From: a virus
Taxonomy: Duplodnaviria; Heunggongvirae; Uroviricota; Caudoviricetes
Length of the DNA: 13,417 nt
IMG/VR virus record: IMGVR_UViG_2526164690_000043
Span: 1 to 13,417 of that record
Strand: one strand, 5' to 3'
How positions within the stretch are numbered: the first letter of the stretch is position 1; every line of letters starts with the position of its first letter. The notes below the pieces were generated by a model. That model did no database searches. It was not told the DNA's origin and worked only from the letters and a program-made list of their open reading frames with translations. This document shows, in pieces, positions 2,912-4,665 of this stretch. Both the position numbers and the translations under genes were made by a program.

Positions 2912-3112
2912 ATGAGAAATCATACCATACACCCGCAAGGGCGGGACTCGCACAACCTGAATAAATACATCTGGCGTTTTATCGCCCTGAGCACGGCACA
3001 ACCGCGCGTGATTACCATTGAGGCCACCAGCGAACAGGAAGCACGCCAGCAATCTCCGGCTGGCTGCGTGATGGTATTTGCTGCCCGTATTCGTCAGGGG
3101 GTAGGCTTATGA
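2912..3112 (+). CDS. Small protein resembling host cell division inhibitor Icd-like proteins of P4-type elements
   Basis: ATG at 2912 preceded by GAGG. The sequence YIWRFIALSTAQPRVITIEATSEQEARQQSPAGCVMVFAARI fits the W-x-F-x-A ... P-x-V ... SE-x-EAR ... FAAR pattern recalled for Icd-like proteins. The ORF track offers a longer form from 2783; the extension has no good start context. Confidence 0.55.
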   Translation: MRNHTIHPQGRDSHNLNKYIWRFIALSTAQPRVITIEATSEQEARQQSPAGCVMVFAARIRQGVGL

Positions 3113-3339
3113 GCCAGGAAATCACACTACAACAGGCAGCAGAACGCGCCCACCAAATCGAAGTTATTTGCGCACTGGCAGAGGATTACCCTGGCATGAT
3201 GACCGACAGCGAATCAGGGGCAATCATCGGCTTACTTAAACGCCTTAGCGGTGAGGTCTGCGTATTCCTGAGCGATGAACAGGAAAGAAGAACGCTTATT
3301 TCTAACGAAAAAAAATGCGGAGGGGTACATGTGCAATAA
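3109..3339 (+). CDS. Hypothetical protein (early operon)
   Basis: 76-aa ORF; its ATG overlaps the upstream stop (ATGA at 3109-3112), indicating translational coupling. No recognisable family. Confidence 0.55.
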   Translation: MSQEITLQQAAERAHQIEVICALAEDYPGMMTDSESGAIIGLLKRLSGEVCVFLSDEQERRTLISNEKKCGGVHVQ

Positions 3340-3553
3340 AACCACACCGGACGCAGCCGCCGCCGCGCTCACTACGCTGATGCACGCGCTTATTGATATT
3401 TCTGTTATTGCTGACAGGGCGCATAAACACGCAGCCAGAGAATCAGAATGCATCTTCCATTATTTAACATTTGTGCAGCTAAAAGCCGATCAGGCACTGG
3501 ATAAGGCCGGAAAAATTATCATGGCTGATGTGCAGGAGGTGCACCATGCATAA
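3329..3553 (+). CDS. Hypothetical protein (early operon)
   Basis: Start chosen at ATG 3329 (MCNKTTPDAAAA...) because GGAGG lies 5 nt upstream. The ORF track's 3275 start would overlap the previous gene extensively. Confidence 0.5.
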   Translation: MCNKTTPDAAAAALTTLMHALIDISVIADRAHKHAARESECIFHYLTFVQLKADQALDKAGKIIMADVQEVHHA

Positions 3554-3911
3554 CCTGTCAATTTCTGACCTTAACAGCATTCAGTTTGACGAGAAATTTA
3601 CCGGGCAGTTGCTGGTCAATGTGGAGAACGGGCGCATAGTGCGTAATTATCACCTGCCGGATGGTGCAATTGCCGGAAGCGTTGAAGCATTGCTGGAACT
3701 GGCGGAACGTGCGCGACTGATTAAGCCGTCAACGAGCCATCACGATGATGATCTGCATTTTACCGGATGTATGGTGAGTCACTACGAAAACGGCGTCGAG
3801 GTATCCTGCGAACGGCTGCGTGATGATTGCTGTTTCGGCACACTGCCGGAATTTATCGAGTTGCTGACCAGTTGCGGTTATCAGGTCATTCAGGGGGGTA
3901 AACATGCGTGA
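3546..3911 (+). CDS. Hypothetical protein (early operon)
   Basis: Start chosen at ATG 3546 (MHNLSISDL...) with AGGAGG upstream; it overlaps the previous stop. About 121 aa, no recognisable family. Confidence 0.6.
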   Translation: MHNLSISDLNSIQFDEKFTGQLLVNVENGRIVRNYHLPDGAIAGSVEALLELAERARLIKPSTSHHDDDLHFTGCMVSHYENGVEVSCERLRDDCCFGTLPEFIELLTSCGYQVIQGGKHA

Positions 3912-4125
3912 TGATCGTTTTAATTCCCTGAAACAGGAATTTTCCGGCGTTCCTGATGATGCGGCTGATGCGCTTTCGTCAATATCTGAAATTATGCGGG
4001 TGGCTTTTTTCTTTCTTTGCACTGATGAGCACAGAGATACAGGGCTAAATATTCTTGATATTGCCGCTAACTATGCTGATTTCGTGACAGAAGCTGTTTT
4101 AAGAAAAACAACGGACGGGGATTAA
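3904..4125 (+). CDS. Hypothetical protein (early operon)
   Basis: 73-aa ORF; its start overlaps the upstream stop (ATG 3904, TGA 3909-3911). Confidence 0.55.
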   Translation: MRDDRFNSLKQEFSGVPDDAADALSSISEIMRVAFFFLCTDEHRDTGLNILDIAANYADFVTEAVLRKTTDGD

Positions 4126-4126
4126 T

Positions 4127-4360
4127 ATGCGTGATATTTACCACGAAACAATAGACCGCGCATTTAGTGCCCTTGCTTACGCTGAAGGTATGTACGAAAT
4201 ATTGCGCATATGGCTTGAAACACTTGGCGACAATGAACGCGACAAACAAAAATCAAGAATTGTCACGGCATTAATAACGCTTCTTGAGCCTGTAATAATG
4301 GAACTGCAAGAAATAGATCTATTGCACGACAGATATAAAGAACAGCACACCGGAGAATAA
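4127..4360 (+). CDS. Hypothetical protein (early operon)
   Basis: 77-aa ORF whose ATG follows the upstream stop by one base. Confidence 0.55.
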   Translation: MRDIYHETIDRAFSALAYAEGMYEILRIWLETLGDNERDKQKSRIVTALITLLEPVIMELQEIDLLHDRYKEQHTGE

Positions 4361-4365
4361 AAATA

Positions 4366-4665
4366 ATGAAACTTAAATATTCTGGCTTAACTGCCAGTGG
4401 CAACACTCACCCTAAATTTACGCGCGGCGATATTTACCGCGACCAGTACGGCGGCACGGTAATGATTAAGGGCGTGGCGGGACGGTGCGTAACCTACCGC
4501 CGTGAAGGTTACGAATATGATTGCGTGATGCCTGTTTATCAGTTCCGGCGTGATTTTTCTCTGGTACAGACCGCGCCGCATAACGTGCCCACCAGCAACG
4601 CCAGGGCACGGGCAAACATCCAGAAGCTGAAAACCATGATTAACGGATTCAGGGGCAAGAAATGA
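4366..4665 (+). CDS. Hypothetical protein (early operon)
   Basis: 99-aa ORF with GGAGA upstream; its stop overlaps the start of the replication gene (ATGA at 4662-4665). Confidence 0.6.
   Translation: MKLKYSGLTASGNTHPKFTRGDIYRDQYGGTVMIKGVAGRCVTYRREGYEYDCVMPVYQFRRDFSLVQTAPHNVPTSNARARANIQKLKTMINGFRGKK

Follow-up and report, generated by a model that had tools for sequence, protein, structure and literature searches.

The window analysed here is a 13,417-nucleotide (nt) stretch of DNA, IMG/VR virus record IMGVR_UViG_2526164690_000043. By gene content and identity to known islands it is most likely a mosaic Escherichia coli capsid-forming phage-inducible chromosomal island (cf-PICI), and at positions 3109–4665 it carries six small open reading frames (ORF1 to ORF6; Table 1). 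We consider it reasonably likely that these six ORFs form the middle of one early cf-PICI operon, in which ORF6 is the known regulator RgdR and ORF1–5 are accessory genes. An earlier sequence-only reading had singled out six tightly packed frames and recognised none of them. The packing was confirmed by the coordinates, by shuffled controls and by reference annotation. ORF1–5 indeed gave no match to any family of known function, while ORF6 proved to be a published protein. ORF1–5 are swappable accessory genes, ordinary for the PICI family, and represent no new kind of system.

The proposed operon would comprise the Icd-like gene, ORF1–5, rgdR, the replicase gene, further small ORFs, and the genes for single-stranded DNA-binding protein (SSB) and a PerC-family regulator. 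The overlapping stops and starts fit translation of eight genes from one transcript, presumably switched on by helper-induced AlpA.

Table 1. Positions of the features discussed, numbered from the first nucleotide of the window.
Feature	Positions	Strand	Remarks
Integrase	1-1230		
AlpA	1595-1783		
YlcI/YnfO-family small gene	2543..2721	-	divergent from operon; annotated by RefSeq in RM8385
Icd-like gene	2912..3112	+	first gene of the operon; NCBIfam phage_ICD_like, E = 2.5e-19; phrog_6196
ORF1 (F1)	3109-3339	+	76 amino acids (aa), ATG start
ORF2 (F2)	3329-3553	+	74 aa, ATG start
ORF3 (F3)	3546-3911	+	121 aa, ATG start
G6 run	3893-3898	+	ORF3/ORF4 junction
ORF4 (F4)	3904-4125	+	73 aa, ATG start
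ORF5 (F5)	4127-4360	+	77 aa, ATG start
ORF6, rgdR ortholog	4366-4665	+	99 aa, ATG start
RepA-family helicase	4662..6059	+	Pfam AAA_25, E = 7.8e-43; start overlaps rgdR stop
Iteron array AAAGTGGGGAG	6058..6256	+	8 copies with GTGGGGA, directly after RepA
PerC/PchE-family regulator	7238-7519	same strand as rgdR	

ORF6 and the regulator RgdR

ORF6 scored 82.1 bits with the Pfam profile DUF4222 (PF13973; cutoff 27, E = 2.1e-23), the match spanning residues 16–68. Aligned gap-free along its full 99 residues, it is 78% identical to ECs1581 and 91% identical to C1493 of strain CFT073. The residues that have been linked to activity, R20-G21-D22 and K35, are kept; ORF6 shares A10 and R45 with C1493 and Q27 with ECs1581. 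Its isoelectric point (pI) is 10.2. Flockhart et al. reported RgdR orthologs whose homology exceeds 77% across 99 aa, a range that includes ORF6. On the strength of this sequence agreement, we identify ORF6 as an RgdR ortholog.

ECs1581, a DUF4222 protein of O-island 51 (OI-51), has been described as RgdR in a review and in the primary paper (99 aa, pI 10). Deletion of RgdR reduced type III secretion, and its expression activated the LEE1 promoter (LEE, locus of enterocyte effacement) independently of Ler and repressed motility. Its binding to DNA was weak and non-specific. ECs1581 and C1493 are the alleles found to be active in experiments, both expressed from plasmids. RgdR was encoded by every E. 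coli PICI analysed by Fillol-Salom et al. (2018). Like ECs1581 and C1493 in enterohemorrhagic E. coli (EHEC), the RgdR of the window would be expected to raise LEE1/ler transcription and hence type III secretion, to lower motility, and to bind DNA weakly with no sequence preference. Most likely it would work as a co-factor that binds DNA non-specifically or contacts RNA polymerase, rather than as a classical operator-binding regulator.

A structural model of RgdR was built with AlphaFold2 from a shallow alignment. The mean predicted local distance difference test score (pLDDT) was 77.5, and residues 20–70 scored above 88. Five strands and a short helix make up a small barrel, followed by a C-terminal helix at residues 77–96, so that the predicted fold is an SH3/Tudor/KOW-like barrel with a basic helix. 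The model resembles, at the level of fold class and with no sequence relationship, the KOW domain of Spt5/NusG, the N-terminal domain of CarD, the C-terminal Tudor domain of UvrD/PcrA and DUF1653. This barrel fold is very common and the scores were modest. The model gives a fold class and not a function, and it fits a non-specific nucleic-acid-binding or polymerase-contacting co-factor. A PDB sequence search with the ORF6 profile returned no match. In an exhaustive HMMER search the DUF4222 family came to only 71 clusters (50% identity), almost all of which are stand-alone proteins of 60–110 aa, and a profile search of genome contigs recovered only two loci.

An inventory of islands with an active RgdR matters for virulence, as satellite-borne RgdR and PerC-type regulators link phage-satellite mobility to EHEC type III secretion. 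The window contains one member of each of two LEE-regulation-linked families, RgdR and PerC/PchE, on a single satellite.

The proposed early operon and its island

The Icd-like gene, the six ORFs and RepA form a chain of eight abutting ORFs; the longest chain in 100 shuffles of the window was at most two. RefSeq annotates the identical six coding sequences in the island of E. coli O103 strain RM8385. From the Icd-like/ORF1 junction onwards the spacings are -4, -11, -8, -8, +1 and +5 nt, followed by -4 nt between ORF6 and the replicase. The sequence-only reading had reported ATGA-type overlaps at 3109, 3904 and 4662 and a 1-nt gap at 4127. The first (Icd-like TGA with ORF1 ATG), the third (rgdR with the replicase) and the gap were found as described, whereas at 3904 the two frames overlap by 8 nt (ATGCGTGA), with no true ATGA. 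Overlaps of 11 nt at 3329 and 8 nt at 3546 and a gap of 5 nt at 4366 complete the series. Each ORF start is preceded by a purine-rich, Shine-Dalgarno-like stretch. This stop/start packing is consistent with translational coupling, as had been suggested from the sequence, and across about 85 loci the related islands keep spacings of -8, -11, +1 or +5 at most junctions.

The starts of ORF4 (3904–3912) and ORF5 (4127–4135) both read ATGCGTGAT, with similar G-rich stretches 5' of them. In related islands the embedded TGA supplies the stop of any upstream gene and so acts as a portable module junction. Because most allele pairs have ratios of nonsynonymous to synonymous substitution rates (dN/dS) of 0.14–0.8, we take the six ORFs to be protein-coding genes and not chance ORFs.

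No strong intrinsic terminator was found on the plus strand between 2828 and 7526; the next terminator-like site lies at 7526–7543, after PerC. An Rfam scan at gathering and E ≤ 1 thresholds returned no family and no C4-like antisense RNA. In EcCICFT073, the prototypical Gram-negative PICI of the uropathogenic strain CFT073, AlpA switches on the downstream genes.

The whole window is 99.65% identical to the RM8385 island, which adjoins roxA. This site is also used by EcCICFT073 and by OI-51/CP-933C/Sp7, later named EcCIEDL933, the prototype cf-PICI. For both islands, helper-phage induction mediated by AlpA and high-frequency transfer have been reported. The window begins with genes for a tyrosine integrase and AlpA, two small minus-strand genes (one of the YlcI/YnfO family), the Icd-like gene and the six ORFs. 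These are followed by the RepA-family AAA_25 helicase, eight GTGGGGA iterons, SSB and the PerC-family regulator, and then by an HK97-type capsid protein, protease, portal, head-closure and connector proteins, an HNH protein and TerS. The layout is that of a Gram-negative PICI of the E. coli type, with int, alpA, early genes, rep with an adjacent origin, and the roxA site; such islands are defined by a length of about 10–15 kb, a dedicated attachment site and the absence of lysis and tail genes. The full cf-PICI gene set (capsid, protease, portal, head-tail connector, HNH, TerS and TerL) is annotated in the RM8385 island. The window ends before TerL, and its protease, portal and HNH frames are broken by single-base indels.

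Identity to known islands changes along the window. The left arm (1–2592) is 99.8% identical to EcCICFT073, as is 2841–3400 at 97.5%, and the packaging module (6813–13414) is 97.2% identical to Sakai Sp7 (OI-51/CP-933C/EcCIEDL933 type). Between the EcCICFT073-like arm and the Sp7-like packaging module lies the RepA-helicase replicon, which is present in other islands too. From these alignments, the island is a recombinant whose integrase, alpA, switch region and ORF1 would come from an EcCICFT073-type island and whose packaging module would come from an OI-51/CP-933C/Sp7/EcCIEDL933-type island.

Relative to RM8385, the window carries 12 single-base indels (at 2639, 6197, 7861, 7895, 9364, 9397, 9940-9967, 10956, 11067 and 11950). 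They disrupt the YlcI/YnfO-like gene, an ORF at 7567–7986, and the protease, portal and HNH genes, and reflect either decay of the island or sequencing error.

ORF1–5 and their variation among related islands

ORF1–5 are acidic (pI 4.3–6.3). Searches of Pfam and NCBIfam gave no match to a named family for any of them, and each falls in a PHROG of unknown function. ORF1 belongs to phrog_1478; the same protein (WP_000076671.1) occurs in EcCICFT073, and Sakai ECs1579 is 53% identical to it. When 50,697 phage records were searched in translation, ORF1 was the only ORF with matches, and a DNA search of phage records gave no match. Homologs of ORF1 at about 40% identity occur in Salmonella phage Fels-1, in its early-left accessory region, and in seven Klebsiella phages. 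For folding, the homolog search for ORF1 returned near-identical sequences only and no useful alignment. ORF2 (phrog_5146 and the N-terminal half of phrog_2512) has alleles 44–99% identical that share a conserved N-terminal helix, whereas the C-terminal half exists in at least three alternative forms.

Within ORF3, a unit of about 40 aa, a beta-hairpin plus a helix, is duplicated in tandem. The two halves aligned with a score of 47, against 19.7 ± 3.8 for shuffled sequences (0 of 2000 shuffles reached 47). Its single-unit relatives have 66–91 aa, and its range is limited to E. coli and Salmonella. ORF4 (phrog_24341 and the C-terminal half of phrog_2512) has a pI of 4.3 and alleles 48–100% identical with dN/dS of 0.32–0.40. 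ORF5 (phrog_2196) is 30% identical to Sakai ECs1580 (E = 2e-9) and is separated from rgdR by 5 nt in 83 of 83 loci. An AlphaFold2 model of a natural ORF3–ORF4 fusion (P0004; pLDDT 51, too low for a fold search) showed the hairpin-and-helix unit twice in ORF3 and a helical hairpin in ORF4. Together, such low-confidence models indicate that ORF1–5 are probably mostly helical. A PDB sequence search with the ORF3 and ORF4 profiles found nothing.

These genes are repeatedly joined to each other. At the ORF3/ORF4 junction the window has a run of six G residues, and many database alleles with five encode ORF3–ORF4 fusions of 181–196 aa reading ...VIQGVNMRDD... (P0003, P0004, P0007, P0008, P0011 and P0013). 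A G run also lies 5' of F4 where F2 and F4 are fused. Programmed frameshifting at the run was considered and rejected: a -1 shift meets TAA at once, the fusion needs +1, and fixed G5 and G6 alleles are simpler. We also rejected the idea that ORF1, ORF2, ORF4 and ORF5 are paralogs, as hhalign gave probabilities of 0.1–3% for the four pairs tested; ORF1–ORF2 and ORF1–ORF4, compared by blastp only, gave nothing. Their joint clustering and shared phrog_2512 membership are due to the fusion proteins and not to homology.

Variation was followed in 85 islands, 80 of them fetched from IMG/VR with ORF5 as bait, which biases the frequency of ORF5. The interval from the Icd-like gene to rgdR showed 16 architectures (20 when unclassified upstream ORFs are included). 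The arrangement F2, F4, F5 was found in 21 islands, F1, F2, F4, F5 in 11, and fused F2+F4 followed by F5 in 10. The full F1 to F5 set, as in the window, was present in seven. By gene, F1 occurred in 27 of 85 islands, F3 in 25 and F4 in 81, with in-frame fusions of F2 to F4 in 21 of 85 and of F1 to F2 in 3 of 85. Alleles of single genes ranged from 44 to 100% identity beside identical neighbours, a pattern that we read as a signature of recombination. Alleles separated by dS of 0.3–2.2 held dN/dS at 0.3–0.4, from which ORF1–5 appear to be fast-evolving yet constrained.

As they are small, negatively charged, helical and repeatedly fused, protein binding is favoured over catalysis for ORF1–5. 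They would form a modular, recombining acidic set whose members most likely bind, sequester or modulate other proteins, and the ORF2–ORF4, ORF3–ORF4 and ORF1–ORF2 fusions suggest that they may act partly as a mutual complex. The five genes are widespread, with parts of the block present in 1386 of 5426 complete E. coli genomes. They also sit in two experimentally tractable PICIs, where their function would be quickly testable.

Two islands are among the closest known systems. EcCICFT073 (c1488–c1493) shares the roxA/phoQ site, has identical integrase, AlpA and ORF1 proteins, and follows the same order: Icd-like, F1, F2, F4, F5, RgdR (C1493), replicase, SSB and PerC. It differs in its alleles of F2 (about 50% identical), F4 and F5 and in its packaging module; its replicon combines a P4-type primase with GGTAGA-type iterons, unlike the RepA helicase and GTGGGGA iterons of the window. 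Sp7 (ECs1577–ECs1582) shares the site and the packaging module. Like the window, it has an Icd-like gene, F1 (ECs1579), F5 (ECs1580) and RgdR (ECs1581) packed before the replicase. Sp7 lacks the YlcI/YnfO-like gene and has ECs1578, with no homolog in the window, and a DUF927 primase-helicase. Absence from functional relatives, which the sequence-only reading had named as evidence against its proposal, was found for ORF2–4 in Sp7 and for ORF3 in EcCICFT073, whereas ORF1 is kept in EcCICFT073. ORF2–4 are judged dispensable for the satellite cycle because they are missing from the functional prototype EcCIEDL933, the equivalent of Sp7. More broadly, ORF1–5 would not be required for satellite induction, replication, packaging or transfer.

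An alternative that we regard as unlikely is that one or more of ORF1–5 act on the helper, for example by derepressing it as epsilon does or by inhibiting its late functions or its packaging, or else serve against phages or defence systems, being expressed early upon induction or entry. The sequence-only reading had leaned this way, on the grounds that satellites often carry helper- or host-manipulating functions at this position. The gene order does match the P4 left operon (vis, ORF137 (Ash), epsilon, orf151, cnr, alpha), in which an AlpA/Vis-type regulator and small packed genes likewise precede a primase/helicase in last place, and in which the small genes include helper-manipulating and replication-control functions. 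In mobile elements generally, early proteins that are small and acidic often inhibit DNA-binding proteins. The deep allelic diversity and shuffling of ORF1–5 fit an arms race with variable partners, and temperate phages carry ORF1 homologs in their early-left accessory region. RgdR itself manipulates the host, so the positional argument holds in part; for interference with the helper there was no positive evidence.

Several results count against action on the helper. None of the six ORFs had a blastp match with E < 0.1 to P4 epsilon, orf151 or cnr, and the families Derepression (PF25738) and DUF5375 were found in P4 and not in the six ORFs. Homology to these P4 genes is rejected or faint, the sole, faint hint being RgdR against the N-terminus of orf151 (hhalign probability 12%, P = 0.0025). 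None of the six ORFs had a credible match in PADLOC-DB; one at E = 0.032 and 11 bits was judged to be due to chance. The packaging specificity of cf-PICIs is already accounted for by their own capsid, portal and terminase genes, this island having capsid and terminase genes of its own, and known PICI defence hotspots are located elsewhere according to the PICI literature. EcCIEDL933/Sp7 is induced and transferred without ORF2–4. Packaging redirection and anti-phage activity, the two examples offered by the sequence-only reading, gained no support.

It is far less probable that ORF1–5 are neutral filler, decaying remnants or selfish passengers kept by linkage. Their presence and absence vary widely, some allele pairs have dN/dS of 0.7–0.8, and the annotation of several genomes includes copies that are frameshifted or fused, all as expected of filler. 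Yet the frames, ATG starts and overlap geometry are kept over dozens of islands, the diverged alleles show the constraint given above, and the 12 indels that break other genes of the window spare the six ORFs entirely (0 of 12 within 3109–4665).

Some observations weigh against the main reading of one early operon with RgdR and five accessory genes. The activity of RgdR is known from plasmid-borne ECs1581 and C1493, alleles other than ORF6, and the DUF4222 family at large has the consensus PGD in place of RGD. Inside ORF5, a sigma-70-like match at 4271–4299 (TTAATA, 17 nt, AATAAT, with an upstream TG), a match to consensus only, is at odds with a single transcript and could provide basal, induction-independent expression of rgdR and the replicase. 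The low pLDDT of P0004 leaves the idea of helical, protein-binding products to secondary structure, charge and fusions, and some fusion proteins come from lone short contigs and may be assembly errors. One close ORF5 allele pair has a dN/dS of 1.7, from very few substitutions. Literature searches, also by neighbouring locus tags, found no functional studies of ORF1–5 in any island.

RgdR, the replicase and the switch region

The stop of rgdR and the start of the replicase gene share an ATGA overlap (-4) in 86 of 86 loci, the count covering loci in which both ends could be placed. Three unrelated types of replicase lie 3' of rgdR: AAA_25 RepA, DUF927/Cch-like and P4-type primase. The N-terminal 122 aa of RepA (window 4662–5030) are 57–70% identical to the N-termini of the DUF927 and P4-type proteins, with Sp7 at 70%. 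This replicase N-terminal domain of about 120 aa had no Pfam or PDB match.

Such constancy could mean that the block, and RgdR above all, is a replication accessory module in which RgdR assists the replicase as Cnr does alpha, the effect on LEE being secondary. We consider this quite improbable. Besides the invariant overlap and the shared N-terminal domain beside rgdR, it is favoured by one database protein in which DUF4222 continues into a P4-alpha-like zinc motif, by the position of RgdR, which is that of cnr in P4, and by RgdR orthologs in strains without LEE (e.g. Nissle-derived SYNB1934 and CFT073). Against this, RgdR and Cnr gave an hhalign probability of 0.1%, no replication phenotype has been reported, and a recombination joint within the conserved N-terminal part of the replicase could account for the adjacency. 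The iterons speak against it as well. Islands with DUF927 or P4-type primases carry TAACCCGCA or CTGTCTACC/GGTAGA iterons instead of those of the window, and iteron sequence tracks the replicase type and not the RgdR allele. Because identical RgdR proteins accompany different replicons, a role of RgdR as origin-specificity factor was rejected. In the window, the iteron array closes the replicon and is probably its replication origin.

A further reading, to which we give a similarly low chance, treats RgdR and the replicase N-terminal domain as one unit that is kept while the catalytic part is swapped. RgdR, as a Tudor/KOW-like factor in contact with RNA polymerase or DNA, would then couple both early transcription and replication of the satellite to host physiology, with LEE activation as a by-product, and a modular complex of ORF2, ORF3 and ORF4, together with ORF1 and ORF5, would neutralise a host or helper protein. 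If true, the block would serve satellites as an 'early takeover' cassette, for which no counterpart has been described. Concrete hypotheses follow from the unvarying link between rgdR and the shared replicase N-terminal domain and from the recurrent fusions among the acidic proteins.

On the other side of the six ORFs lies the divergent YlcI/YnfO-like/Icd-like region, so that the block does sit between a regulatory switch and the replicon, as had been read from the sequence. RefSeq starts the Icd-like gene at 2828 instead; its orthologs have 66–68 aa and begin with MRNH or MLNH. The YlcI/YnfO-like gene, a putative switch partner, is frameshifted in the window (T6 at about 2639, against T7 in RM8385). 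From its N-terminal sequence, we would guess that its product is a ribbon-helix-helix repressor.

Just past alpA, the plus strand carries the remnant of an AntA/Bro-N-type antirepressor gene (1836–2150), which is unannotated. An ORF of 300 aa at 1836–2738 is a run-on from there across the antisense strand of the minus-strand genes. E. coli ST361 has a complete antA gene at the position of the remnant.

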